Of a DNA stretch of 30,187 nucleotides, positions 7,096 through 29,308 are shown one piece after another. The stretch's first letter is position 1. Every line of letters starts with the position of its first letter. Origin of the DNA: a virus (Duplodnaviria > Heunggongvirae > Uroviricota > Caudoviricetes); IMG/VR virus record IMGVR_UViG_3300029033_000135, one strand, 5' to 3'. The translations under genes and the position numbers were made by a program. The notes under the pieces are model-generated. The model had not been told where the DNA came from, made no database searches, and worked only from the letters and a program-made list of their open reading frames with translations.

Positions 7096-9522
7096 ATGTC
7101 CAAAAATGACCGAATGGTGGGCATCAGCCGCAGAACACTCGTTAAATCAACCGCGATAGGTTCTCTGGCGCTGGCTGCAGGCGGTTTTTCTTTACCGTTC
7201 ACCCTGCGCAGTGCAGCGGCAACGGTACAACAGGCCAGCGAAAAAGTGATCTGGGGTGCCTGTTCCGTCAACTGTGGTAGCCGCTGTGCACTTCGTCTAC
7301 ATGTTAAAGATAATGAAGTGACCTGGGTGGAAACTGACAATACCCGCAGCGATGAGTACGGCAACCATCAGGTACGCGCCTGTTTGCGCGGTCGCTCCAT
7401 CCGCCGGCGTATTAATCATCCCGATCGCTTGAATTACCCAATGAAACGCGTGGGTACACGCGGTGAAGGCAAATTCGAACGGATTAGCTGGGATGAAGCC
7501 CTGGATACTATCGCCAGTAGCCTGAAAAAAACCGTCGAACAATATGGCAATGAGGCTGTATATATTCAGTACTCTTCGGGGATTGTTGGCGGCAATATGA
7601 CCCGCTCTTCGCCATCAGCCTCGGCGGTCAAACGCCTGATGAACTGCTACGGCGGTTCACTCAATCAGTATGGCTCCTACAGCACCGCGCAAATTTCCTG
7701 TGCCATGCCCTACACCTACGGCAGTAATGATGGCAACAGCACCACGGATATTGAAAACAGCAAGCTGGTCGTGATGTTTGGTAACAACCCGGCAGAAACC
7801 CGCATGAGCGGCGGTGGCATCACTTATCTTCTTGAAAAAGCGCGCGAGAAATCGAACGCCAAAATGATTGTTATCGATCCGCGATATACCGATACGGCTG
7901 CTGGTCGTGAAGATGAATGGCTCCCTATTCGCCCGGGCACCGATGCCGCGCTGGTTGCGGGTATTGCCTGGGTATTGATTAACGAAAATCTCGTTGATCA
8001 ACCTTTTCTCGATAAATACTGCGTCGGCTATGACGAAAAAACCTTACCCGCAGATGCACCCAAAAATGGTCACTATAAAGCCTATATTCTTGGTGAAGGT
8101 GATGATAACACAGCGAAAACGCCGCAGTGGGCTTCGCAAATTACCGGTATCCCGGTAGACCGTATCATCAAACTGGCGCGTGAAATTGGCACAGCAAAAC
8201 CCGCTTATATCTGCCAGGGCTGGGGGCCGCAACGCCAGGCAAACGGCGAACTGACTGCACGCGCTATTGCTATGTTACCTATTTTGACGGGCAATGTCGG
8301 CATCAGCGGCGGAAATAGTGGCGCGCGTGAATCGACCTATACCATTACCATAGAACGCCTGCCGGTGCTGGATAATCCGGTCAAAACGTCAATCTCCTGC
8401 TTCAGCTGGACAGATGCTATCGATCATGGTCCGCAAATGACGGCAATCCGCGACGGCGTCCGCGGCAAAGATAAACTGGATGTGCCCATTAAGTTCATCT
8501 GGAACTACGCGGGAAATACCCTCGTTAATCAGCATTCTGACATCAACAAAACGCATGAAATTCTGCAGGACGAATCGAAATGCGAAATGATTGTGGTCAT
8601 CGAAAACTTTATGACCTCATCGGCAAAATATGCCGACATTCTGCTGCCAGACCTGATGACCGTTGAGCAGGAAGATATTATTCCTAACGACTACGCCGGT
8701 AACATGGGATATCTCATTTTCCTCCAGCCTGTCACCAGCGAAAAATTCGAACGCAAACCGATTTACTGGATCCTGAGTGAAGTCGCGAAACGTCTTGGAC
8801 CTGACGTCTATCAAAAGTTCACAGAAGGTCGCACGCAGGAACAATGGTTACAACATCTGTACGCCAAAATGCTTGCCAAAGATCCGGCGTTACCGTCTTA
8901 CGACGAACTGAAAAAAATGGGTATCTATAAGCGTAAAGATCCCAATGGCCATTTTGTCGCCTACAAAGCATTTCGTGACGACCCCGAGGCAAATCCACTT
9001 AAAACGCCTTCCGGTAAGATTGAAATTTATTCCAGCAGGCTGGCGGAAATTGCCCGTACCTGGGAACTGGAAAAAGATGAAGTGATAAGCCCATTGCCAG
9101 TTTATGCCTCAACCTTTGAAGGCTGGAACTCCCCTGAACGTAGAACCTTCCCACTGCAACTGTTTGGTTTCCATTACAAATCCCGTACTCACTCGACCTA
9201 CGGCAATATTGATCTCCTGAAGGCTGCCTGCCGTCAGGAGGTGTGGATCAACCCTATAGATGCGCAGAAACGTGGGATTGCCAACGGCGATATGGTGCGG
9301 GTGTTTAACCATCGTGGCGAAGTTCGGCTACCAGCCAAAGTAACACCACGTATTCTCCCTGGAGTTAGCGCTATGGGCCAGGGAGCCTGGCACGAGGCCA
9401 ATATGTCTGGCGATAAAATCGACCATGGCGGCTGTGTGAATACGCTAACCACTCTGCGCCCTTCACCACTGGCGAAGGGAAACCCGCAGCACACTAATCT
9501 GGTCGAGATCGAAAAAATATAA
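7096..9522 (+). CDS. ynfE: Tat-exported molybdopterin oxidoreductase catalytic subunit YnfE (DmsA paralog, selenate reductase)
   Basis: 808 aa; twin-arginine signal (SRRTLVKST), N-terminal Cys cluster (CSVNCGSRCALRLHV), molybdopterin oxidoreductase family architecture. Confidence 0.95.
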   Translation: MSKNDRMVGISRRTLVKSTAIGSLALAAGGFSLPFTLRSAAATVQQASEKVIWGACSVNCGSRCALRLHVKDNEVTWVETDNTRSDEYGNHQVRACLRGRSIRRRINHPDRLNYPMKRVGTRGEGKFERISWDEALDTIASSLKKTVEQYGNEAVYIQYSSGIVGGNMTRSSPSASAVKRLMNCYGGSLNQYGSYSTAQISCAMPYTYGSNDGNSTTDIENSKLVVMFGNNPAETRMSGGGITYLLEKAREKSNAKMIVIDPRYTDTAAGREDEWLPIRPGTDAALVAGIAWVLINENLVDQPFLDKYCVGYDEKTLPADAPKNGHYKAYILGEGDDNTAKTPQWASQITGIPVDRIIKLAREIGTAKPAYICQGWGPQRQANGELTARAIAMLPILTGNVGISGGNSGARESTYTITIERLPVLDNPVKTSISCFSWTDAIDHGPQMTAIRDGVRGKDKLDVPIKFIWNYAGNTLVNQHSDINKTHEILQDESKCEMIVVIENFMTSSAKYADILLPDLMTVEQEDIIPNDYAGNMGYLIFLQPVTSEKFERKPIYWILSEVAKRLGPDVYQKFTEGRTQEQWLQHLYAKMLAKDPALPSYDELKKMGIYKRKDPNGHFVAYKAFRDDPEANPLKTPSGKIEIYSSRLAEIARTWELEKDEVISPLPVYASTFEGWNSPERRTFPLQLFGFHYKSRTHSTYGNIDLLKAACRQEVWINPIDAQKRGIANGDMVRVFNHRGEVRLPAKVTPRILPGVSAMGQGAWHEANMSGDKIDHGGCVNTLTTLRPSPLAKGNPQHTNLVEIEKI

Positions 9523-9579: not shown

Positions 9580-12006
9580 ATGATGAAAATCCATACCACA
9601 GAGGCGCTCATGAAGGCTGAAATCAGCCGTAGAAGTCTGATGAAAACCTCCGCACTTGGCAGTCTTGCGCTGGCAAGCAGTGCTTTCACTCTGCCATTTT
9701 CCCAAATGGTCCGGGCGGCAGAGGCTCCGGTAGAAGAGAAAGCGGTCTGGAGTTCCTGCACCGTTAACTGCGGGAGCCGCTGTCTGTTACGTTTGCATGT
9801 GAAAGATGACACCGTGTACTGGGTGGAGTCTGATACGACAGGTGACGACGTCTACGGTAACCATCAGGTTCGAGCGTGTTTACGCGGGCGCTCTATCCGC
9901 CGACGGATGAATCATCCTGATAGGTTGAAATATCCCATGAAGCGCGTCGGCAAGCGCGGTGAAGGTAAATTTGAACGGATAAGTTGGGACGAAGCCCTGG
10001 ATACCATCAGTGATAATCTTCGGCGGATCCTGAAAGATTACGGCAATGAGGCTGTACATGTCCTGTACGGAACAGGCGTAGATGGCGGAAACATCACCAA
10101 CTCAAACGTCCCGTACCGTCTGATGAACTCTTGCGGTGGTTTTCTCAGTCGCTATGGCAGCTACAGTACCGCACAGATCAGTGCCGCAATGAGTTATATG
10201 TTCGGTGCCAATGATGGCAACAGCCCGGATGATATCGCCAATACGAAACTGGTCGTTATGTTCGGAAATAACCCGGCAGAAACGCGGATGAGCGGCGGTG
10301 GTGTCACTTACTACGTCGAGCAAGCCCGCGAACGTTCAAACGCACGCATGATCGTCATCGATCCACGTTATAACGACACTGCTGCCGGGCGTGAAGATGA
10401 ATGGCTGCCCATTCGCCCTGGCACCGATGGCGCACTGGCCTGTGCGATTGCCTGGGTACTGATTACTGAAAACATGGTCGATCAGCCATTTCTCGACAAA
10501 TATTGTGTTGGTTACGATGAAAAAACGCTGCCCGCCAACGCACCACGTAACGCGCATTATAAAGCCTATATTCTGGGCGAAGGGCCTGACGGCATAGCTA
10601 AAACGCCGGAATGGGCAGCAAAAATCACCAGCATCCCGGCAGAAAAAATTATCCAGTTGGCACGAGAGATCGGTTCAGCAAAACCTGCTTATATTTGTCA
10701 GGGTTGGGGGCCACAACGACATTCCAACGGCGAGCAAACGTCCCGCGCTATTGCCATGCTTTCCGTTCTCACCGGTAACGTCGGCATAAACGGCGGCAAC
10801 TCAGGTGTACGCGAAGGTAGCTGGGATCTGGGGGTAGAATGGTTCCCGATGCTTGAGAATCCTGTTAAAACGCAGATTTCCGTCTTTACATGGACAGATG
10901 CCATCGACCATGGTACGGAAATGACCGCGACCCGTGATGGTGTTCGTGGAAAAGAAAAACTGGATGTCCCCATCAAGTTTTTATGGTGCTACGCCAGTAA
11001 CACATTGATCAATCAACATGGCGACATCAATCACACCCATGAGGTGCTTCAGGATGACAGCAAGTGCGAGATGATTGTTGGCATTGACCACTTCATGACG
11101 GCCTCGGCTAAGTATTGCGATATCCTGTTGCCCGACCTGATGCCAACAGAGCAAGAAGACCTTATCTCTCATGAATCTGCAGGGAATATGGGCTATGTGA
11201 TCCTCGCCCAACCCGCAACCTCAGCAAAATTTGAACGCAAACCCATCTACTGGATGCTGAGTGAAGTCGCCAAACGCTTAGGACCAGACGTTTATCAAAC
11301 CTTTACTGAAGGTCGCAGTCAGCATGAATGGATCAAATATCTCCATGCGAAAACGAAGGAACGTAACCCTGAGATGCCCGACTACGAGGAGATGAAAACG
11401 ACCGGGATCTTTAAGAAAAAATGCCCGGAAGAACACTACGTCGCTTTCCGCGCATTCCGTGAAGATCCACAGGCAAACCCGTTGAAAACACCTTCGGGGA
11501 AAATCGAAATTTATTCTGAACGACTGGCGAAGATTGCAGATACCTGGGAATTGAAAAAAGATGAAATTATTCATCCCCTTCCTGCGTATACCCCAGGTTT
11601 TGATGGCTGGGACGATCCCCTGCGGAAAACCTATCCACTGCAGTTAACGGGCTTCCACTACAAGGCGCGTACCCACTCCAGCTACGGCAATATTGATGTG
11701 TTACAGCAGGCCTGCCCACAAGAGGTGTGGATCAACCCCATTGATGCTCAGGCTCGCGGTATCCGTCATGGCGATACCGTGCGGGTATTTAACAATAATG
11801 GAGAAATGCTGATTGCCGCAAAAGTGACTCCGCGTATTCTGCCTGGCGTTACCGCCATCGGGCAAGGTGCGTGGCTTAAAGCGGATATGTTTGGTGACCG
11901 GGTCGATCACGGCGGCAGTATCAATATTCTGACCTCTCACCGCCCTTCACCGCTGGCAAAGGGAAACCCGTCGCACAGCAATCTTGTCCAGATCGAAAAG
12001 GTTTAA
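9580..12006 (+). CDS. ynfF: Tat-exported molybdopterin oxidoreductase YnfF (tandem paralog of YnfE)
   Basis: 808-aa ORF with Tat motif (SRRSLMKTS) and Cys cluster (CTVNCGSRCLLRLHV); collinear with YnfE along its whole length. The second Met at 9583 is an alternative start. Confidence 0.95.
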   Translation: MMKIHTTEALMKAEISRRSLMKTSALGSLALASSAFTLPFSQMVRAAEAPVEEKAVWSSCTVNCGSRCLLRLHVKDDTVYWVESDTTGDDVYGNHQVRACLRGRSIRRRMNHPDRLKYPMKRVGKRGEGKFERISWDEALDTISDNLRRILKDYGNEAVHVLYGTGVDGGNITNSNVPYRLMNSCGGFLSRYGSYSTAQISAAMSYMFGANDGNSPDDIANTKLVVMFGNNPAETRMSGGGVTYYVEQARERSNARMIVIDPRYNDTAAGREDEWLPIRPGTDGALACAIAWVLITENMVDQPFLDKYCVGYDEKTLPANAPRNAHYKAYILGEGPDGIAKTPEWAAKITSIPAEKIIQLAREIGSAKPAYICQGWGPQRHSNGEQTSRAIAMLSVLTGNVGINGGNSGVREGSWDLGVEWFPMLENPVKTQISVFTWTDAIDHGTEMTATRDGVRGKEKLDVPIKFLWCYASNTLINQHGDINHTHEVLQDDSKCEMIVGIDHFMTASAKYCDILLPDLMPTEQEDLISHESAGNMGYVILAQPATSAKFERKPIYWMLSEVAKRLGPDVYQTFTEGRSQHEWIKYLHAKTKERNPEMPDYEEMKTTGIFKKKCPEEHYVAFRAFREDPQANPLKTPSGKIEIYSERLAKIADTWELKKDEIIHPLPAYTPGFDGWDDPLRKTYPLQLTGFHYKARTHSSYGNIDVLQQACPQEVWINPIDAQARGIRHGDTVRVFNNNGEMLIAAKVTPRILPGVTAIGQGAWLKADMFGDRVDHGGSINILTSHRPSPLAKGNPSHSNLVQIEKV

Positions 12007-12016
12007 AGAGTAGCCC

Positions 12017-12130
12017 ATGACCACACAATATGGATTTTTTATCGATTCCAGCCGCTGTACTGGCTGTAAAACCTGCGAACTGGCGTGCAAAGATTTTAAA
12101 GTTGGTTACGTATCGTTTAAAATCAATTAG
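12017..12130 (+). pseudogene. ynfG: 5' fragment of ynfG (Fe-S subunit), truncated after codon 28 at the junction with the inserted element
   Basis: ATG at 12017 encodes MTTQYGFFIDSSRCTGCKTCELACKDFK, identical to the remembered YnfG N-terminus including the first ferredoxin Cys motif. From 12101 it diverges (VGYVSFKIN) and stops at 12128-12130. Confidence 0.8.
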
Positions 12131-12174
12131 ATAGCCCGTCATTTCTGCGCTCACACGTCCCAACATTGAAAAAC

Positions 12175-12208
12175 ATGCAAAGCTTTGTAAGCCGATGCAA
12201 AGCTTTGT
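12175..12208. promoter_or_regulatory. Two copies of a 14-bp repeat (atgcaaagctttgt), each containing the perfect 10-bp palindrome CAAAGCTTTG, 20 bp centre to centre
   Basis: Direct observation: copies at 12175-12188 and 12195-12208, about 75 bp inside the junction. Operator-like geometry for a dimeric DNA-binding protein. Confidence 0.4.
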
Positions 12209-12354
12209 GTGTCTCACTTTTGTCCCAATACCAATCCGAATCCACCCTTTGTCATCATTGAGAAATGGCAAGGAAGAAAAGGATGTTACTGCACGATTTG
12301 ACAAATCCGCCAGAGCTATCGCATATTGACCGCACTGAACAAATAAGCGGTCAT

Positions 12355-12382
12355 CCGCACCCGATAGCTTTGCGGCTTTTTT
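12355..12382 (+). terminator. Weak stem-loop plus T tract upstream of the HNH gene
   Basis: ccgca-N11-tgcgg followed by cttttttattt; short stem and large loop, so weak. Confidence 0.3.
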
Positions 12383-12400
12383 ATTTATATCGGGCTTCTC

Positions 12401-12838
12401 ATGAAAAACCTTTTAAATAATTTTCTTGACAATTGCATTGAAAATATTTTACCAAAAGATGATTTTGGTTATGGGCGTCTTTTAATCGGCTCAAAGGGTA
12501 AACGTATTAAAACTGGCGCGCATAGGTTAATTTACCGAATTTTTATTGGAGAAATTCCTGCGGGCATGGTTGTCAGGCATTCTTGCGATAATCCTGCATG
12601 TTGTAATCCAAAGCATTTACTAATAGGAACAATCCTTGATAATAATGCTGATCGACAGAAACGAAAACGCCAAGCACGTCATGAAAAACATGGGCGAGCA
12701 AAACTAACTAAAGAGCAAGTGCTATTTATAAGAGCTAATGAAATGAGTATACCAAATTCAGTTCTTGCAGATAAATACAGGGTCTCCAATAGCTTAATAT
12801 GGCAAATAAAAAACTATCGCATTTGGAATGAATTGTAA
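12401..12838 (+). CDS. HNH homing-type endonuclease
   Basis: 145 aa; HNH_3-like core AHRLIYRIFIGEIPAGMVVRHSCDNPACCNPKHLLIGT followed by a basic tail. Confidence 0.8.
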   Translation: MKNLLNNFLDNCIENILPKDDFGYGRLLIGSKGKRIKTGAHRLIYRIFIGEIPAGMVVRHSCDNPACCNPKHLLIGTILDNNADRQKRKRQARHEKHGRAKLTKEQVLFIRANEMSIPNSVLADKYRVSNSLIWQIKNYRIWNEL

Positions 12839-12916
12839 CCACGCTGTTGACGACAGCATCCAATAGTGACTATACTCCGCGCCGAGACCTCGAAAACCTC
12901 CCAAAAGCGGATTAAG

Positions 12917-12943
12917 CCAACCCCGTCAGTGTTGGATTTTTTA
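12917..12943 (+). terminator. Putative intrinsic terminator after the HNH gene
   Basis: ccaac-N9-gttgg stem followed by atttttta, about 80 nt after the HNH stop. Confidence 0.45.
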
Positions 12944-13118
12944 TGCCTGTCATTCAGTGATGGCACAATGTGCGGTCACATCCCCGATCCATGTCGGGAG
13001 GGCGACGAATACAACACCCGCAAGGGGAATAAGTCCGCGGTATCTTTTGGGCCGTTTCGAGCCTCCCGGCACCACATTTTGTGGTGGCATTTCTCGAAAA
13101 AAGCCAAAGGAGGTCATC

Positions 13119-13736
13119 ATGACCACTCAACTCATCCCTGTGTTTGAAGGTACAATCTCAAATGAACCTACGCTTCTGGTGAACGCGCGTGATTTGCATG
13201 GGTTTTTAGAGGTAGGTAAAGATTTTTCTAACTGGATACGGGCCAGGCTAAACGAGTATGGATTCGTAGAAAATTTAGACTACATTCTATTTTCGCCAAA
13301 TTTGGCGAAAACTCTAGGCCGCCGCCGCAAGGACTACCACCTCACCCTGGACACAGCCAAAGAGCTTGCGATGGTTGAACGAAACGAAAAAGGCCGCCAG
13401 ATCCGCCGCTACTTCATCGAGTGCGAAAAGAAACTTCGCAACATTCAGCCAGTACAAGCAGAATCACAGCCACAATTTACCGCCGAGGAAATCATCCTCC
13501 TTTGCTACATGCAACTCTGGATGGAAAAAGCCCAGGACCTTAGCAAGCAGCTGTACCCCATAATGAAAGAGCTGAACTCCTCATACACGAACAAGCTGTA
13601 TGACATTGCGTTTGAGACTATCTACATGGTGACGAAGAACAGAGACGCGNNNNNNNNNNNNNCGTCTCGACATGTCAAGTTCCGTTATCCAGCGGGCCAT
13701 GCCAATGCTGAAAAGCCTGCGGGCAAGACAATTTGA
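13119..13736 (+). CDS. Phage antirepressor-like protein (ORF6N / P22 AR N-terminal type domain); C-terminus uncertain because of the assembly gap
   Basis: Strong SD aaggaggt (13107-13114) before the ATG at 13119. N-terminal domain PVFEGT..LLVNARDLHGFLEVGKDFSNWIRARLNEYGFVENLDY is typical of ORF6N/antirepressor domains. A 14-N gap at 13649-13662 makes the downstream frame and stop (13736 or 13743) unknown. Confidence 0.7.
   Translation: MTTQLIPVFEGTISNEPTLLVNARDLHGFLEVGKDFSNWIRARLNEYGFVENLDYILFSPNLAKTLGRRRKDYHLTLDTAKELAMVERNEKGRQIRRYFIECEKKLRNIQPVQAESQPQFTAEEIILLCYMQLWMEKAQDLSKQLYPIMKELNSSYTNKLYDIAFETIYMVTKNRDAXXXXXSRHVKFRYPAGHANAEKPAGKTI
13649..13662. other. Run of 14 N (assembly gap or masked bases) inside the antirepressor gene
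   Basis: Direct observation; flanked by GAGACG (13641-13646) and its reverse complement CGTCTC (13663-13668). Confidence 0.95.
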
Positions 13737-13747
13737 ATTCTGAAACC

Positions 13748-13770
13748 AAAGGAGCTTCGGCTCCTTTTTT
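13748..13770 (+). terminator. Rho-independent terminator downstream of the antirepressor gene
   Basis: aaaggagc-TTCG-gctccttt hairpin (UUCG tetraloop) followed by a T run. Confidence 0.85.
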
Positions 13771-13939
13771 CATGCCTGAACGACAACGCCGCTGAAATCG
13801 AAGAGTTAATACAATAAAGAGAAGAGCTCAGTACATTAGATAAACATTTTTTATCATTATCTCATTGCCTTTATTCAAAAAAATAGTTACATAACGTTAC
13901 TAGGTAAAATGCAAACCCTCGCTATTTTTATCAGATTGT

Positions 13940-15166
13940 ATGCCGGTAACTATAACAAAAATCAGAACTGGAGAAGATGTTTTGTCAGCAGCCATTCACC
14001 GCATTGAATGGTTGTTTGAAACATTCTCTTCTGTATGTTTATCTTTTTCTGGCGGTAAAGATTCCACTGTACTTTTCCATCTTGTAGCCGAAGTGGCCTA
14101 CAGGAAGAAACGTCGTTTTTCTGTATTGTTCATTGACTGGGAAGCCCAGTATCAATGCACCATTGATCATATACAGAAGATGCGGATGATGTACCAAGAT
14201 GTAACAGATACCTTTTACTGGGTTGCACTTCCCCTGACGACAGTAAATGGTGTCTCGCAGTTTCAGCCTGAGTGGATATGCTGGGAGCCCGGTGTAGAGT
14301 GGGTTCGACAGCCACCGGAAGATGCTATTACTGATATGGCGTATTTCCCCTTTTACCGCTACGCCATGACTTTTGAAGAATTTGTCCCAGCTTTTTCTTC
14401 CTGGTTCGCAAGTAACCAATGTAGCGTGGCAATACTGACTGGAGTCCGCGCGGATGAATCTCTTAACAGATTTATGGGACTGGTTTCCCAACGAAAACTG
14501 AGATATGCAGATGATAAACCCTGGACCACGGCGTCACCTGAAGGTTTTTACTACACCATGTATCCGCTGTATGACTGGAAAACCAACGATATCTGGGTAT
14601 ATAACGCTAAAACCTGTGCAATCTACAATCCTCTGTATGATTTGATGTACCGTGCAGGCATTCCTCTACGTAATATGCGTGTCTGTGAGCCTTTTGGCCC
14701 GGAACAGCGTAAGGGACTATGGCTTTATCATGTTCTGGAGCCAGAAACTTGGGCACGGATGTGTGAACGAGTATCTGGTGCTGCCAGTGGGGCTCTTTAT
14801 GCCAATGAAAGCGGGGCCTATTTTGCCCTGCGTAAACGGATGTCAAAACCATCCCATCATACCTGGCGCAGCTATGCGTTCTTCCTGCTGGACGTAATGC
14901 CGGAAAGAACGGCTGAACACTACCGCAACAAGATAGCAGTCTACCTGCGCTGGTATCAGAACCGGGGATTCCCGGATGATATCCCGGATGAACAGGAAAA
15001 TGATCTGGGCTGCCGGGATGTTCCCTCCTGGCGACGTATTTGTAAGACTCTCATAAAGAATGATTTCTGGTGCCGAACGCTCTCCTTCAGCCCCAACAAA
15101 CCCCGGCACTATGAACGTTACCTGCAGCGTATGAATGAAAGGAGGAAGGAATGGGGAATTCTGTGA
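13940..15166 (+). CDS. ibrA: PAPS-reductase-like PP-loop ATP pyrophosphatase (IbrA-like)
   Basis: 408 aa; PP-loop motif SFSGGKDS at residues 34-41 (nt 14039-14062), with a long C-terminal extension. A TTG at 13985 with GGAG upstream is an alternative start. The ibrA assignment is from memory of the IbrA/IbrB regulator family. Confidence 0.7.
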   Translation: MPVTITKIRTGEDVLSAAIHRIEWLFETFSSVCLSFSGGKDSTVLFHLVAEVAYRKKRRFSVLFIDWEAQYQCTIDHIQKMRMMYQDVTDTFYWVALPLTTVNGVSQFQPEWICWEPGVEWVRQPPEDAITDMAYFPFYRYAMTFEEFVPAFSSWFASNQCSVAILTGVRADESLNRFMGLVSQRKLRYADDKPWTTASPEGFYYTMYPLYDWKTNDIWVYNAKTCAIYNPLYDLMYRAGIPLRNMRVCEPFGPEQRKGLWLYHVLEPETWARMCERVSGAASGALYANESGAYFALRKRMSKPSHHTWRSYAFFLLDVMPERTAEHYRNKIAVYLRWYQNRGFPDDIPDEQENDLGCRDVPSWRRICKTLIKNDFWCRTLSFSPNKPRHYERYLQRMNERRKEWGIL

Positions 15167-15795
15167 CACCAGAGGTGGAGGTGCTGAGCAAGATGATTCG
15201 ACAGTACTTCAGTCAGGAACAATCTGAAGAGAAAACCATACAGGCCCTGAACCATCTCCGCTGCGTACTCCATGAGATCAGCCCCTTTGCTCAAGAACCA
15301 GTGGACTGTGTGCTGTGGGTAAAAGCGGATGAAATTGTCGCTAACGATTATAATCCCAATGTCATGGCCCCAAGCGAAAAAAAATTACTGAAACAATCTC
15401 TGGAAAAAGACGGTTTTACTCAACCAATTGTTGTTTCGGAAGAAACAAGCCATTACCTGGTGGTGGATGGTTTTCATAGGCAGTTACTAGGTAGAAGAAC
15501 AGTTACTGGAAAACGCCTGAAAGGCTGGCTACCAGTAACCTGTATTAATCCAGACCGAAAGGGACAAACCTCACGTATTGCCGCGACTATCCGACATAAC
15601 AGAGCCAGGGGGAAACACCAGATAACCTCAATGTCTGATATTGTCAGAGATCTTTCACGTCTTGGCTGGACTGATGAACGTATCGGAACAGAACTGGGGA
15701 TGGACCAGGATGAAGTTCTGAGGTTAAAGCAGATTAGCGGGCTAACGGAGTTATTTCAGCAGGCAGATTTCAGCCCTGCATGGACTGTTACATAA
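15151..15795 (+). CDS. ibrB: ParB/Srx-like nuclease-domain protein with C-terminal HTH (IbrB-like)
   Basis: 214 aa; ParB/sulfiredoxin-fold motif LVVDGFHRQ and a C-terminal HTH-like segment (TDERIGTELGMDQDEVLRLKQISGL). Its start overlaps the upstream stop by 16 nt and has the SD aaaggaggaagga. Confidence 0.7.
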   Translation: MGNSVTPEVEVLSKMIRQYFSQEQSEEKTIQALNHLRCVLHEISPFAQEPVDCVLWVKADEIVANDYNPNVMAPSEKKLLKQSLEKDGFTQPIVVSEETSHYLVVDGFHRQLLGRRTVTGKRLKGWLPVTCINPDRKGQTSRIAATIRHNRARGKHQITSMSDIVRDLSRLGWTDERIGTELGMDQDEVLRLKQISGLTELFQQADFSPAWTVT

Positions 15796-15816
15796 AGTTA
15801 GGTTAGGCCTGTGGAG

Positions 15817-15851
15817 CCGGGGAATCGGAATTAAACATCTTCCCTCCCCGG
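15817..15851. terminator. Stem-loop between convergent ibrB-like and gepA-like genes (ccgggg ... ccccgg)
   Basis: Inverted repeat lies between the two stop codons; no clear U tract on either strand, so function is uncertain. Confidence 0.3.
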
Positions 15852-15883
15852 TAAATACAAATAAGGGCTGAACATCATCCCGA

Positions 15884-16408
15884 CTACCTCAGATCACCTA
15901 ATAATATATCAAGATTATTTTGCGCATTAATGCTATTCGCCATTACTGTTGCTGCTTCTGGCAACTTTCCAAGAGCAATAAATATATTCTTAAGGCTGAT
16001 TGGAATTGATGAACCATGCGGATCGCGCCACTCACCGCAAATTCTGTGAGTTTCATCACAAAGCCTGAACGCATCCCAACCTCCATATTGACCAAAAATT
16101 ATGTCCATTGACTCTATTTCTGCGGGCGATAACTCCCCCAGCTCATCAACAGAAGAAAATGTACGCCACATTTCAACCTTATGATCCGCTACATCAGATA
16201 TCCATGATTCCCACGGACTGTACTCGTTTTCACTTCCATCCTTAACCAAAGAATATGTCTGCGATAAAACGGGTCCTTTGTTCATAGAGAAATAATGATC
16301 ACCACTAATGGGAAAACCATACAACTCCATTGCTTTGCGGTCAGAGAGATACATCAGCTTAATGAAACGCATAGATCCGCCATGTTTTTTCAGCAAATAC
16401 GCTGCCAT
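15884..16408 (-). CDS. Phage-associated GepA-like protein (DUF4065 / Panacea antitoxin-type domain), no adjacent toxin gene
   Basis: 174 aa; N-terminus MAAYLLKKHGGSMRFIKLMYLSDRKAMELYGFPISGDHYFSMNKGPVLS fits my recollection of the DUF4065/GepA family N-terminus. It stands alone with 150 bp of spacer upstream. Confidence 0.6.
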   Translation of the reverse strand: MAAYLLKKHGGSMRFIKLMYLSDRKAMELYGFPISGDHYFSMNKGPVLSQTYSLVKDGSENEYSPWESWISDVADHKVEMWRTFSSVDELGELSPAEIESMDIIFGQYGGWDAFRLCDETHRICGEWRDPHGSSIPISLKNIFIALGKLPEAATVMANSINAQNNLDILLGDLR

Positions 16409-16558
16409 TTACGCAACTTTTTCTTCATTAAACATAAATCGGCTCTCTGTCTCACATGAAATACTCTTTCTGACTATATGTTAATAGCTCCGGTTATTAC
16501 AGGTTAATGTGTGTTTATTTCTTAATCAGCCCCGCACTTCCGTACGGGGCCATTTCTG

Positions 16559-19500
16559 TTAATCCACTCCCACTTTTTTGTTGTACTCGCGGTTAAAGCG
16601 ATCCACGGCAACCTTCATATCCCGCTCTACCGATTTCACCATCGCCGCCTGCTGCGCCAGACTGAGAGAACTGTCGGCATAAATGGCATCGCGCTGTTTG
16701 CGCAAATCCTTCAGTCTCTTCCGGGTATCCTGCATAAGCCCGTTCATCAACAATTTTCCGTTGTTCTCGTCAATGAACGCCGTTCTTTCTGCACCGGTCA
16801 GACTCTTCAGCTCTGCGTGATACTGCGCAACCTCTGTCATCCGGTCGTACATCTTCTGCTGGTCTGCATACGGCATCACCTCACCCGAAATTTTCCCCAG
16901 GAAGGGCACCTGCTGCTCCGGTATATCAATACCGTTCAGCGATTTCACCGCCGCATCTGTGGTTTTGGAAATGAAGCGCCCTGTCCCTCCGGAGATATAG
17001 TCAATCCAGAATTTCAGCGATTCCGGTGTGATATCCACCGCGCCGGGACGATACTGGCTGCCACCTGAGAACGCATTCAGCCAGGATGCAAACGCCTTGT
17101 ACGCCTCAGGCGTTGAACGTCTGCCCAGCTGGCTGTCCGGTTTCGGTGTGCCAAATGGCATGTTCTCCTGGTAAATCTGCGCCCCCATGAAGTTTTCATT
17201 CATGGCAAGGTTCGCAAACGGACGCAGAATGGTCGGCGCTGCATTTTTCAGCAATGCCCCGGACAGTGTTTCCGACGTTTCACTGCCCACAGGACTGAAT
17301 GCCCCCAGGATACCACCGACAACATTACCGGCAGCACGTGAAGCAGTCAGGTCGCCCGCTGCCACACCTTCAGCAGTATGCCCGAGCAGGAAGAAAACGT
17401 TGTACCCGTAAGGCAGAGGAATACTCCAGTACTCTCCGGCCTTGCCCCCGAACACCGATTTCATAATGACGAGGTTACGCTCTTTCACATGAGACGGCAC
17501 CTTGTCATACCAGTTAACCCCGTCATCATCCTCCCCCGCAACACTGCGGTTAAGCGAGCCAAGCAGATAACCCGCTCCCACAGCTGCAAGCGCGATTTTC
17601 TGCGGTACATTGAGATTCTTCCAGCGAAGGCGCTCCGGTAACGGCCCGTCGCCATTAAGATGTCCGAGCGTTCTCACCAGGTTTGCGGTCCCCTGAATGC
17701 TGGCGTTGGCAAACATATACAGCGAGTTCATCAGCGCTCCCTGCTCACCACGACGGTTAAAGTTCACCGTCATGTTTTTGGCAAGAGATGCCGCCTGCTG
17801 GCGTGACAAACCGGCATCACGGGCGTGTTTATAGGCAGAAAGACGCAGAGCGTTTTCAACCGCGCCGTTGGCATCCTCGACCAGGTTCAGGAACGAATGC
17901 CATGCACCGATACTCTGGCCTTTCCATCCTCCCTTCGCCAGCGATACAAGGCGATCCATTTCCTTCTGCTGGCCTTCAAGGTCACCCATGTTAAACCAGC
18001 CGGTTTTACCTCCGTCCTCAACAAACTCTTTCCACACCTTCTGCCACTGCGCACCGTTGCCCGTGAGGGTTTTACCACGCAGACTGGCGTATACGGCAGA
18101 CATGGCAGACCGGCTGTCTTTCACCACAGCCAGGGCGGATAAGTTATCCAGCCCTTTCAGTTTACCGTCGCTCCTTCCCTGCTCCGCCTTCAGGTTCATC
18201 ACCGCCGTCTGCACGTCACGGATGAAGTTACTGACCAGGAATTCCGGGTTATACGACGTGTTCACCGTTGCCAGGAAGCGGTTAACTTTCCCCAGCGTGC
18301 GGATTACGGCGTTACTGGTTTCCGGTCCCATATTCTTCATCGCACGCATCAGGCGCGGATCATGGAGTTTGATGTAGTACGTTTTGCCGTTCTTTTTGGT
18401 GGTGAAGTACCGGTCTGCCATCATTGCCATCGGTACAGGACGTTCGACAACTTCGTGACGGGTTTCACCGGTTTCCGGAACAACACGCTCTGCAATCGCA
18501 CGCATGGTGTCCGGTCGCTCATTGGTGAATACCTGCCAGTAATCCTTGTCTGGATTATCCTGTACCAGTTTCAGGAAGGCGTTACCTACTTCATTTTTGC
18601 GATTGCGGATCAGCGATTCGCTCAAGTCCTGTATCGCCTGAGTGGACGGAGACTGTGCGCGGGATGCACGCCCCATGGCCTGCCTGCTTTCACGTCCGCC
18701 GATAGTGAAGCCTTTACCTGTACGGGGCAGTGACACCACACCGTCAACATCCTGGCCTTTCAGAGGAACGTAGTAACGGTAGGCGTTCTGCCAGGCATCC
18801 ACCACACCGCTCTCTTCCAGTCCGGCCTCACGGATAAGCTCACGGCGACGGGCCAGCATATCGTCAACAATCCCTGCCAGACGGTCATACTGTGCCTGTT
18901 TGCCACTGTTACGCACACGCTGCATGATTTCCGCCGCTTCCGCGTTGGTCATCCCCGAACCGCCGTCCGGCATTTTCGGGTTGATTTTCGCGATATGCGC
19001 GTTACGTTCCGGCGCGTGACGGGCGTAGAGGTACTCATCCAGATCGGCCTGCGCAATTTTGTAGTCCGCCAGTAATTTAGCCAGCGGCTGAACATAGCGC
19101 TCCTTCATCACGTTCAGGTCGTTTTCCGCCTTCCCGTGGAAGAGTTCTTCCGCCATATAAGCGTTGTTACTGTCGTCTATTTTTCCGCCAGTTTTACGGA
19201 TATTCTCCTGAACAGCTTTCAGCACCTGGAATTTATCCTGCATCTGGCGCACAAAACGCGATGCAATTGTCTCTTCCGGTGTCAGACTGCTGGTACGGGA
19301 GTAATGCGGCCCCTTGCGAATATCTTCAGGATAGAGTATTTTATCCGCAGAGCCGCGATAAGAATGTTCCCCTTTGGGCAATTGGAGCCCTCTGTGCAGA
19401 AGGTTATCGCGGCTTAATTTTTCTCTCCGGTACAACGTTAACCCGGTCATTTCCATACTCTTCAGTTTTTTTCCATTTTCTGTACCGTAAACAGAAGCTA

Positions 19501-22500
19501 CCTTGTTGATTTCCAGACGCGACCGGACAGCCTTCATGTGTACCGCTGACACCACCGGATCACCATTTTTATCCACGGCATCAAGCAGCATCACAACCGC
19601 ATTTCTTTCTGTCGCTGAGTGGTAAATTGCATCCGGATCGTGCATCAGTTCCGGTAGTCTCTCGATAACATCCATCGGCACCACATGTTTCACACCATTG
19701 GTGGCCTTACGCACAGTGTCGCGGGAGATAACCAGCGGCAAATCTGGTGCGCCAAGGTGACGCAATACCGGCGGCGTACGCCCGATGTTTACCGTTAAAT
19801 CCGTTGAGCGCAGAGACTTCATCATTCTGGCAAGGTCATCACGATAACGCTCGCCCTCACCTTCCGGCACTTTGAACGGATCAGGCTTACCGCTACGGGA
19901 GTACTGAGACGATGCGCCAGCGCCATCCTCACGCGGCGTGTAACCTTCCCGCACACGCTGGCCTAACGTGCGAATAGTTTCGCGAACAAGTCTGATATCG
20001 TTCAGCTCTGTCGGCTTCAGTAACCCCGTGCGACGCAGTACCCCTTTGACCAGGGCAACAACACGCTCCCACGCCGCCACAAATTTATTCGGCTGTTTCT
20101 CCGCCATATGTGCCAGAAATTCACCCGCCTGCACTTCCGGTGATTCCTTACCATAAGACGCATCAACCTTACGCCAGGCTTCACGGATGGTGGCGTTATC
20201 ACTGTCACGGGTTTTCAGCACGGTCTTAATAATCGTCTGATATTCCGCTGGCGTGACTACATGCTCCATTGCATGGTGGATAATCTCGTGACGCAGCTTC
20301 TCGCGAACGGTCCGCCCGTCAGGAATGTTATCCGCCACCAGGACAATTTCACGTTTATCCGGACGATAGAACGCATGCACCCTGCCGTAACCGTCGAACG
20401 ATTCACCCGCCAGCGCTTCAGCCTCTTTCTGTGACTTCACCACGCGGACCTTCAGGTCACTGTCCTTAATGCCACTCATCACGCCACGGGCAACCGCTTC
20501 AACCTGCGGGACCGGGCTGCCTTTGGCTTCCGCACTGCGGTTAACATCCGAAATGAGATTGCCTTCAGGTGTGCGGGTCACGCCCTTACGGGAATAAAAC
20601 GCAACGCCCTTGTCCGTCTCACGGGTTTTCAGCGTACTGAACAGGTGATCGAATGCATCACGAATACCGCCATCCAGTTCCGCATTCGTCGGATAAGCCC
20701 AGGTGTTATCTGTGTTGTGCTCAGGTGCCTTACGGATATTGACCAGATAATCATTCTCCACGCCAGCCGTACGCGCTTTATCCTGAACATAACGCTCAAA
20801 GGCACGCGCCGCCATTTCAACATCCGTTGACCAGTACGGTTTTGAGCGCACCTCATCGAGAAGCGCTGAACGACGCGGCATGTCACTGCTGTTGATCGCT
20901 TTCATCACGCCTTTAAACGCGTCGTAAACCTCCTGACGTACCGGATATTCCGCATCAACATATCTGCCGTCTTTAAATACGCGCCCGGCACGCTGTGCTT
21001 CCGTCATATAGTCGCCACCTGACGTGATCTTCCCGTCAGTGGAAACATCATAACGACCAAAATAATTATCCAGTGAATGGAACCATTCGTGGGCCAGCGC
21101 CCCCGGTCCGTTACCTTTTGTCAGGTTGATTGCCACCTCACCCGGCTCATAGTGTGCCGCCGCCTTACCCTTACCACGGGCACCAAAAGCAAGCCCAAGA
21201 CGACCGTTCAGAGAAAGCGCTTTTGTCGGCACGTTCAGCACATCAGCCAGGTCATGCAGCGAGTCATAAGCCCGGTTCAAATCAGCCTGACGACGCGGAC
21301 CTTCCACATAATTACCAAACTGCACACCACGAAAACCAAACGCATCACTGAACTGCTCCGGCGAAACATCCCCCTTGCGGCGTTCTGGTCCGGTACGATC
21401 GCGGTTGGTGGCGTTACGCTGCTCCTCACGCGAAATCTCCCGCATCTCCTTCACATGACGAACAAGCTCATCACGATGTGAATCAATGTACTTACGCGCA
21501 TCACTGGCTGACTTAAAGCCACCTCTCACCCGCATTTTGTTTTTGCCATAAGCGATAAAAATATCGCCACTGCGGGTATTCCGGTAAACGTCAAAGCGGA
21601 TTTTGTCATCCGGTGACGGTGCCGTTTTTTCATCTCCTTTCGCCTGTGACTTTTCCTCCAGCTCTGCAAACCAGACTTTCGCCTTTGTCAGTAATTCATC
21701 CCTGCTTTCCGAGAAAAAGAGGTTAGTCCCCTTATTGTCCTTATTGCGCAGTGAATAAAGTTTCTGTGGCGGATCGTAACGCTTCCCTCCTGCCGCCTGA
21801 TACACACCCGATACCACCCGATAAGCAGAAGCCTTGTCCATCTGTGAGGGTGGCAGAGTGCGTAACAGTTGCCAGGTATCCGCGTAACGGGAGGGCATTC
21901 TGCCTTCCATCCATTCTGCGAGGCGTTTCGCGCTGACCGTTCCGTTCAGCATTTCCGATACACTGTGTCGTACTTTTTTTACGCTCTCCCCCCAGCCAGC
22001 CGTATTGTGTTTCGTCTTCGCCGGAATATCGCTACGATACAGCGCTATCATTGCCAGGGTGTCAGCATCAGCCCCTTCGCTCGCCAGTTTTGCGTAGTCC
22101 GGTTTCGGGAACAGTTTGCTCAGCGGCTGCGTGGCATAATCCCTGTCTTCCAGCGTTTTACCCAGTGTTTCAGCAAGCTGTGCATAACGGTGTTTGGCTG
22201 CCCCTTTAATTTCCTCGCCAAAGTCTTCAATTTTTTTGCCCCTGACTTCACCTCCGCGCACAGTAGCTTCCCTGTCAGTAGAGACAGTTGTTTCAGATTC
22301 AGGTGCGATTGTCTCAGGCTGCGGGATGTCACGATTTCCTCCGGCCTGTCGACGTACTTCTGCCTGCTGTGCGAGCTCAGGCAATGAGTTACGAACAGTT
22401 CGGGGAAGCTGATCAGGCTGAGGCATACGGACATTGTGTGTAATGTCCGGAGCCGGTAGACCTTCACGTACCAGCGCTGTGGCGTTCTGCTCATCCGGTG

Positions 22501-28201: not shown

Positions 28202-28342
28202 CTACTGCTTACACTGTAAGAACGCCGCAAACTCCGCTCCCCACAAATTCAGCCGGAACTCACACAACGAGCCGTGTAACATCCAGATGGTGAAGATCAC
28301 CGTCATACAAATTGTGACGGTGATGAGCGATTTTTGCGACAT
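28202..28342 (-). CDS. Hok/Gef-family type I toxin-like small membrane protein (46 aa)
   Basis: Translated by hand (too short for the ORF track): MSQKSLITVTICMTVIFTIWMLHGSLCEFRLNLWGAEFAAFLQCKQ. The pattern IC.T..FT.....SLCE.R....E.AAFL matches Hok/Gef; SD aggagg lies 8 nt upstream. Confidence 0.6.
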   Translation of the reverse strand: MSQKSLITVTICMTVIFTIWMLHGSLCEFRLNLWGAEFAAFLQCKQ

Positions 28343-28573: not shown

Positions 28574-29308
28574 TCAGAATTTCAGGCCAATGCCTACAAT
28601 AACCCCACTCGTGCGCCAGTCACCGGATCCGGAGCTTTCATACGCGACATCCATAGCAACACTTTCATTCAGGTTAAATTGTGCACCAGCAGCCCATGCA
28701 AGTGCTGTTTTTTTAGTACTCTTGCTTTCAGAAAAACTACCGGCACCATGATTAAGATTGTCGTTAATTTTCAAGTCAGTGGTGACTTTTGCACCCCCCA
28801 TACCAGCCATTGCATACACACTGAGGTATTCGTTAAACCGCCACGAAGGACCGGATAGTAGACTCCAGTAATTAGCCCTGATATCAGTTCTCGCTGAAGC
28901 TGCCGGATTTTTAACCTCTCTGGATTCATCTCCTGGGTTAATATCAATAAATGCCTGCGCATTAGTCATAGAACGCGCCCATGTAAAAGATGTTATAACA
29001 CCAATCTCATCCGTTATCTCATAACGATACCTGATGCTCATCCCCTGAGGAGATTTGCCTTTGCCATCATGCCCCCGGACAGAAGCATCTGCATATTCGC
29101 CTGAATTGAAGTAGTGTCTGTTTGTAAAACGGTTAAAAGTATCAAGATTATAAAGACTTAAATCCTTAACAAAATTGTTCAGTCCAGAGAGCTGAAGATG
29201 AGCGTATCCGAAAGAAACTGTACTGTCACCTTGTGCTGCACAGGCAGGGGCTGCTACAAAACTCATCACAAAAGTTGTGCACGCAAAAATAATTCTGGTA
29301 TGTTTCAT
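28574..29308 (-). CDS. Ail/Lom/OmpX-family outer-membrane beta-barrel protein (244 aa)
   Basis: Signal peptide (MKHTRIIFACTTFVMSFVAAPACAAQG), alternating amphipathic beta strands, and C-terminal GIGLKF ending in an aromatic residue as in Lom/Ail/PagC; AT-rich upstream region. Confidence 0.7.
   Translation of the reverse strand: MKHTRIIFACTTFVMSFVAAPACAAQGDSTVSFGYAHLQLSGLNNFVKDLSLYNLDTFNRFTNRHYFNSGEYADASVRGHDGKGKSPQGMSIRYRYEITDEIGVITSFTWARSMTNAQAFIDINPGDESREVKNPAASARTDIRANYWSLLSGPSWRFNEYLSVYAMAGMGGAKVTTDLKINDNLNHGAGSFSESKSTKKTALAWAAGAQFNLNESVAMDVAYESSGSGDWRTSGVIVGIGLKF

Follow-up and report, generated by a model that had tools for sequence, protein, structure and literature searches.

The left attachment site (attL) of a lambdoid prophage of ~59 kb, 933W-like and belonging to the φPOC-J13 / 75-02 / PhiR5_2 group (Sepvirinae), very probably lies at positions 12095-12101 of the window, the 30,187-nt stretch of DNA analyzed here, where the phage occupies an attB inside ynfG; we put the probability of this reading at about 0.95. 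Both the integration site and the phage family are already known, because published Stx phages integrate at ynfG (PMC4193171, PMC5447701, PMC10562709), and the window represents a further instance. The value for annotation is that the 37-codon open-reading frame at 12017-12130 can be recorded as a ynfG pseudogene stub and 12095-12101 as the attL core.

Truncation of ynfG at the chromosome-phage boundary

The features on either side of the boundary were as follows:

7096-9522: ynfE, intact, without internal stops
9583-12006, plus strand: ynfF, intact, without internal stops, the final gene of the ynfEFGH-dmsD operon to be complete left of the junction
12017-12130, plus strand: truncated ynfG, 28 native and 9 phage-derived codons followed by TAG
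12095-12101, no strand: attL core/overlap region TTTAAAG, 7 bp, common to attB, attL, and attR
12102-12384, no strand: phage P′ arm of attL, nearly identical to the POCJ13 terminus and to the EC2 prophage

When aligned with ynfG of K-12 MG1655, the window was identical at 85 of 85 nucleotides from 12017 to 12101, and the first differing base was 12102, with unrelated sequence onward. The ATG of the truncated gene (12017-12019) is located 10 nt past the TAA (12004-12006) of the intact ynfF. Codon 29 (12101-12103) is changed from GAT to GTT, so that 28 native codons are kept, and the product reads MTTQYGFFIDSSRCTGCKTCELACKDFK up to the boundary and VGYVSFKIN beyond it, ending after 37 codons at a TAG at 12128-12130 (full translation from 12017, MTTQYGFFIDSSRCTGCKTCELACKDFKVGYVSFKIN). 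Past the same breakpoint, K-12 YnfG reads …KDFK-DLGPEVSFRRIYEY…. An earlier note on this DNA had proposed an element junction inside ynfG that truncates the gene, and this was borne out by the K-12 alignment, by recurrence of the junction in 82 genomes and by the phage DNA downstream; its count of 28 intact native codons and a stop after 37 was confirmed by translation. The divergence that it placed at 12101 is correct at the level of the codon (codon 29) and one base early at the level of the nucleotide.

Only Cys group I (C14, C17, C20, C24) is kept in the stub, where Pfam recognized a single Fer4 motif at residues 6-25 and nothing else, and the identical stub in NCTC9112 and EC2 carries the RefSeq label "4Fe-4S binding protein, incomplete, missing C-terminus". 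The open-reading frame in the window is not the single polypeptide of ~205 aa with four Cys groups that defines a functional YnfG/DmsB subunit. The Shine-Dalgarno sequence of the truncated gene reads AAAGAG, not AAGGAG, through a G-to-A change at 12007 that is present in none of K-12, NCTC9112, and EC2; this change may reflect relaxed selection on the ribosome-binding site of a pseudogene, or it may be a neutral polymorphism.

The chromosomal flank to the left of the junction is ordinary E. coli, with 99.8% identity to several strains including STEC1589 and STEC1590 and with K-12 synteny (rspBA-ynfABspeGynfCD-ynfEF). YnfF matches the K-12 protein at all residues, and YnfE matches at 800 of 809 translated positions, counting the stop. 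Near the far left of the window, at 440-1735 on the plus strand and just upstream of rspB, is an intact gene for a 431-aa tyrosine integrase (Arm-DNA-bind_2 and Phage_integrase domains), at a position where K-12 presumably has intQ, the integrase gene of the defective Qin prophage. Another mobile element is likely to adjoin the window there, ~10 kb upstream of the ynfG prophage.

Recurrence of the junction in complete genomes

A 100-bp attL probe (12052-12151) was searched against 5,426 complete E. coli genomes with a threshold of at least 80% coverage. Matches were obtained in 5,316 genomes, and the probe was covered to at least 80% in 82 of the 5,426. Genomes with the junction of the window include RM10410 and STEC1589. 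In an even-step sample (40 listed), genomes without the junction matched probe bases 1-50 only, which end at 12101. In most of the matching genomes (5,316 in all), ynfG is uninterrupted, with the site occupied in 82. An attR probe was covered in 89 of the 5,426 genomes, with C227-11 and other O104:H4 outbreak strains among them, and none of the genomes had either half of ynfG twice. A degenerate att pattern searched across 185,579 species-representative genomes returned only an empty attB in three Escherichia genomes and chance matches in unrelated taxa.

This recurrence bears directly on whether the junction could be an assembly artefact in which a chromosomal contig was joined chimerically to a phage contig. 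The window is not gap-free, as it contains a run of 13 Ns at 13650-13662, but this run lies 1.5 kb away within the ant gene. Moreover, 82 complete and mostly long-read E. coli genomes share the identical junction, and its position agrees to the base with the end of the POCJ13 record, itself a prophage. Misassembly at 12101, which the earlier note had named as a threat to its claim, is excluded for practical purposes because the same junction recurs in those 82 genomes, and we regard an artefact as vanishingly unlikely.

The attR junction was also observed in the O104:H4 2011 outbreak lineage, in C227-11 and FDAARGOS strains (e.g., NZ_CP011331.1, 1833881-1833980). Because the junction is present there, this lineage also has a prophage of the same integrase type that splits ynfG. 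The Stx2a phage of O104:H4, located at wrbA, is separate from it.

The attachment core and its flanking arms

The core TTTAAAG was found at attB in K-12, at attL in the window, EC2, and NCTC9112, and at attR in EC2, and is the only segment common to all three kinds of site. The K-12 attB reads aaagatTTTAAAGatcttgg (also given as …gcaaagatTTTAAAGatcttggcc…), the attL of the window reads aaagatTTTAAAGttggttacg (also given as …gcaaagatTTTAAAGttggttacg…), and the attR of EC2 reads agcaacaacTTTAAAGatcttgg (also given as …gagcaacaacTTTAAAGatcttggcc… and, in other lengths, as …caacaacTTTAAAGatcttggcc… and GAGCAACAACTTTAAAGATCTTGGCC). Relative to K-12, the breakpoint at 12101/12102 is the same in NCTC9112 and EC2. 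Direct reading of attB reveals an imperfect inverted repeat around the core, AAGAT-TTTAAAG-ATCTT, and the reconstructed attP holds the palindrome CAACTTTAAAGTTG; an overlapping palindrome at attR was also picked up by a repeat search. Lambda-type tyrosine integrases likewise use an overlap of 7 bp, and the putative cleavage positions within TTTAAAG are assigned by analogy with lambda Int.

The earlier note had suspected an attachment core overlapping the 5′ end of ynfG, which holds for TTTAAAG at 12095-12101, and had drawn this from a resemblance just past the junction, VSF-K-I against VSFRRI, which is not the core. The resemblance could in principle mark an extended core to the right of the junction, as shuffling the 27-nt phage arm produced a shared 3-residue word in only ~2% of cases, but that rate carries little weight when the observation was made post hoc. 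The matching residues are offset by two codons and lie on the wrong side of the junction, and their Ser codons come from different families (TCG vs AGT; GTATCGTTT vs GTCAGTTTC). To the right of the core, 3 of 15 positions are identical without gaps, and 1004 of 2000 shuffles equalled or beat the best local alignment between the two right arms of 60 nt. In addition, attR places the end of the shared segment at 12101. An extended core was rejected on its register, its differing Ser codons and the chance-level similarity of the right-arm DNA; it is very improbable, and the 7-bp core is retained.

To the left of the core, the phage arm resembles ynfG at 9 of 15 positions (p ~0.007, post hoc), and core-type binding sites for Int common to both could account for this similarity. 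To the right, the reverse complement of the POCJ13 record starts ttggttacgtatcgtttaaaatcaattag..., corresponding to the window from 12102 onward. The P′ arm contains two direct copies of ATGCAAAGCTTTGT at 12175-12188 and 12195-12208, 20 nt apart, and a related motif, ATGCAAAGAAAGC, is found in the other (P) arm at the end of int (positions 13660-13672 of L004) in EC2, POCJ13, and PhiR5_2. Both motifs are conserved in POCJ13, PhiR5_2, EC2, and NCTC9112 and, by analogy, are candidate integrase arm-type or accessory-protein sites.

The far end of the prophage in related genomes

The window ends ~18 kb into the prophage, and the other junction and core repeat, which the earlier note had proposed to locate, were found in the closest relative, EC2, where the two cores are 59,364 bp apart. 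The far end of EC2 consists of a tyrosine integrase gene (387 aa; Pfam Phage_integrase, E = 1.5e-45), 52 nt leading to the same core at attR (…gagcaacaacTTTAAAGatcttggcccgg…), ynfG codons 27-205, and intact ynfH and dmsD. The EC2 integrase is identical to that of POCJ13 at 385 of 387 residues and differs from that of PhiR5_2 at one residue. The layout with int beside the junction is the same in POCJ13 and PhiR5_2, an observation made in relatives, as the window stops short of this region. The attP arm and integrase are of the POCJ13 type, with the arm matching from 12102 and the integrase 99% identical in EC2 and PhiR5_2. Joining the left flank, core, and right flank of EC2 in silico gave a 205-aa YnfG identical to K-12 at 205 of 205 residues, and the same result was obtained with the left flank of the window in place of that of EC2.

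Many phages that integrate within a gene rebuild the gene they enter, and the phage end at attR might likewise restore a functional ynfG and keep operon function. In the relatives, the displaced ynfG fragment starts at codon 27 and is preceded by 13 in-frame open codons upstream of the core, with no ATG and with two GTG codons 5 to 6 codons from the core. The above-chance, post hoc resemblance of the left phage arm to ynfG, its being in frame, and these GTG codons would favor such a reconstruction, but the in-frame opening extends only 13 codons, has neither an ATG nor an obvious Shine-Dalgarno sequence, and encodes …FQVVSNN-FKDLG…, with 0 of the 4 cysteines C14, C17, C20, and C24, and the RefSeq annotation of the fragment is that of a pseudogene whose N-terminus is missing. 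Reconstruction of ynfG on the attR side was rejected on the missing ATG, the 13 open codons, and the absent Cys motif and is extremely unlikely. The earlier note had allowed that the far end might restore ynfH and dmsD; in relatives, these two genes and the 3′ part of ynfG are retained, but no functional ynfG is rebuilt.

The element in this particular genome might instead be a decayed remnant in which the 3′ part of ynfG, ynfH, and dmsD were deleted or relocated and not simply displaced. The far end is beyond the window, IS elements interrupt related prophages, and the attL and attR counts (82 and 89 genomes) imply that not all genomes have both canonical junctions. The two counts are nevertheless close, the 18 kb of prophage in the window and the full-length EC2 prophage are collinear, at 98.7% identity over 97% of the former, the large open-reading frames of that stretch are intact, and EC2, the one related genome examined end to end, has both junctions. 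We consider a remnant improbable and favor simple displacement by a complete prophage. In lysogens among the relatives, ~59 kb separate ynfH and dmsD from the ynfE promoter, and both genes lie directly behind int and share its orientation.

Gene content of the prophage within the window

The interval 12102-16500 matched 188 phage records, mostly Stx-converting phages. The phage-derived genes in the window were as follows:

12401-12838, plus strand: HNH endonuclease gene, free-standing, in an AT-rich cassette (Pfam HNH_3, E = 9.6e-13)
12957-13736, plus strand: phage antirepressor, AntA/AntB + P22_AR_C (Pfam AntA, E = 3e-26)
13940-15166, plus strand: ibrA (PAPS-reductase/DUF3440, by Pfam), prophage cargo
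15151-15795, plus strand: ibrB (by Pfam), prophage cargo
15884-16408, minus strand: SocA_Panacea-domain protein (by Pfam)
16559-24940, minus strand: polyvalent protein of 2,793 aa, LPD38 + LPD5 + LPD1 + MuF_C (by Pfam)
28202-28342, minus strand: Hok/Gef toxin gene, prophage cargo
28574-29308, minus strand: Lom (by Pfam)

The description of the downstream sequence as phage-like in the earlier note thus agrees with the antirepressor, IbrA/IbrB, polyvalent protein, and Lom identified by Pfam and with the Stx-phage matches.

By alignment, the HNH cassette (~12385-12850, GC 35-40%) replaces a truncated antA-like gene of POCJ13 and EC2, and its borders, the terminator-like GCGGCTTTTTTAT at the left and GTTGACGAC… at the right, are conserved in the window, POCJ13, and EC2. 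The cassette DNA had no match in the 5,426 complete E. coli genomes or the 50,697 phage records, and the nearest proteins to its 145-aa product, at 43-45% amino acid identity, are from virulent phages (Aeromonas, Bacillus, T7-like). The cassette looks like a rare acquisition of a free-standing homing endonuclease or moron. The antirepressor has a counterpart in EC2 annotated as "phage antirepressor Ant", and its true start probably lies further downstream. Its open-reading frame is interrupted by the run of Ns, and because the matching EC2 stretch is 18 nt, the 13 Ns are a placeholder or mask and not a true length; the ant frame across the run is not trustworthy.

IbrA and IbrB are annotated in phage PhiR5_2, and an "IbrB-like" protein is annotated in EC2. 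The SocA/Panacea-domain protein was noted with no recognized toxin partner, and the order of its gene and that of the polyvalent protein is the same in EC2 and NCTC9112. A giant polyvalent protein is typical of 933W/Stx-type short-tailed phages; of the short-tailed virion module, the window shows the polyvalent protein and lom, and the N4-gp56-type capsid, portal, and terminase were seen in EC2 only. Downstream of Q, EC2 has a SASA/NanS-p-type esterase and no annotated Shiga toxin gene, and the window ends before the stx region. Further in, the EC2 prophage has a YadA-C-terminal-domain gene, presumably an Eib-like gene. The ibrAB genes encode regulators of the immunoglobulin-binding Eib proteins. 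The cargo suggests an stx-negative, Eib-type version of the Stx-phage chassis.

Predicted consequences for the ynfEFGH-dmsD operon

In the mechanism we propose, the phage tyrosine integrase would target attB in codons 27-29 of ynfG, and attP (…gagcaacaacTTTAAAGttggttacg…) and attB would recombine within the TTTAAAG overlap, splitting ynfG in two. The 28-codon stub, which is the piece in the window, would stay behind the ynfE promoter, and ynfG codons 27-205 together with ynfH and dmsD would end up ~59 kb away, downstream of int. As long as the prophage is resident, the FNR-dependent ynfE promoter would no longer be coupled to ynfH and dmsD. If excised precisely, the prophage would leave a restored operon, giving the empty site GCAAAGATTTTAAAGATCTTGG and the circular attP CAACAACTTTAAAGTTGGTTACG.

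In DmsB-type subunits, four Cys groups ligate four [4Fe-4S] clusters. With Cys group I on one piece and groups II-IV on the other, neither ynfG fragment would be expected to form a functional four-cluster electron-transfer subunit, and because neither fragment could do so, YnfE and YnfF would lose their dedicated electron wire. YnfG is described as connecting YnfE to the quinol-oxidising YnfH in electron transfer (PMC5203670), and loss of YnfEFGH activity can, from the sequence, soundly be expected. Polarity on ynfH and dmsD is plausible. The dmsD gene belongs to the ynfEFGH-dmsD operon, and its product is essential for DmsABC maturation (PMC12096835, PMC4464133). A literature search for an independent dmsD promoter returned only statements placing the gene in this operon, and scans for promoter and terminator consensus sequences around attL and attR gave promoter counts no higher than in shuffled sequence.

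Because ynfH and dmsD are moved from the ynfE promoter to a position behind int, lysogeny could alter the supply of DmsD, a chaperone that the main DMSO reductase, DmsABC, requires in trans, and might act as a reversible, phage-controlled respiratory switch of the "active lysogeny" type, an idea that we consider unlikely. If true, it would concern a site occupied in 82-89 complete genomes, O104:H4 outbreak strains included. Loss of the selenate/tellurate reductase YnfEFGH, or a change in dmsD expression, would be a modest but real cost to or effect on the host.

Comparison with known systems

The Stx1a phage φPOC-J13 was reported at S. flexneri locus S1742 by Gray et al. (2014), and in new MG1655 lysogens of this phage, insertion in ynfG, the homologue of S1742, was detected by PCR (PMC4193171). 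The same gene is the integration site of the S. sonnei Stx1 phage 75/02 (PMC5447701) and of a 62.5-kb Stx1a prophage in E. coli RM10410 (PMC10562709). The chromosomal primer of Gray et al. maps to 11777-11801 of the window with 0 mismatches and their phage primer to 12959-12977 on the minus strand with 2 mismatches, giving a junction amplicon of 1,201 bp in silico compared to the 1,155 bp reported (PMC4193171). This difference in size fits the exchange of the antA-like gene for the HNH cassette.

POCJ13 (Diegovirus POCJ13, Sepvirinae; NC_025434/KJ603229) is Stx1a-converting and integrated in S1742/ynfG. It shares with the prophage in the window the target gene, a base-exact junction, a nearly identical sequence over the first ~283 nt of the phage arm, and an antirepressor region with 94.7% identity. 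Its record has the layout of an excised prophage, in which one end is the base at 12102 of the window and the other falls just before the core, beside the integrase, and both Shigella phages, POCJ13 and 75/02, align from this first prophage base. However, within the 4.4 kb of prophage that follow the junction in the window, just 25% align to POCJ13, which lacks ibrAB and the HNH cassette at the position where the window has both.

PhiR5_2 (PV340546.1) was the best phage match, with 98.3% identity across 83% of these 4.4 kb; its ibrAB-ant arrangement and att arms are the same, and its integrase is that of EC2 but for one residue. The EC2 prophage matched the window's 18 kb of prophage at 98.7% identity over 97% of its length and is annotated as a 933W-like lambdoid podovirus with an N4-gp56-type capsid, portal, terminase, lysis cassette, and nin region, as well as a NanS-p-like esterase, cII, and Bet/Exo/Gam. 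PhiR5_2, EC2, and NCTC9112 all differ from the window in having the truncated antA-like gene in place of the HNH cassette. The S. sonnei 75/02 phage, the RM10410 prophage, and phiSTEC1589-Stx1c occupy the same locus and show partial similarity in the ant region, but these are stx-positive, with other cargo and mosaic segments, whereas the window ends before the stx region. In other strains, phages of the φPOC-J13 type can carry stx1a or stx1c, which makes an occupied ynfG useful as a flag in the typing of STEC and Shigella.

The system resembles lambda in having a tyrosine integrase beside one junction, a 7-bp identical overlap, and imperfect inverted repeats in attB, and the repeated arm motifs are, by analogy, candidate arm-type sites. 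Among intragenic Stx-phage sites, wrbA (933W, Sp5) provides the comparison. The ynfG prophage differs from lambda- and wrbA-type systems in that its target is near the 5′ end of the coding sequence and the displaced part of the gene is left without a phage-supplied replacement.
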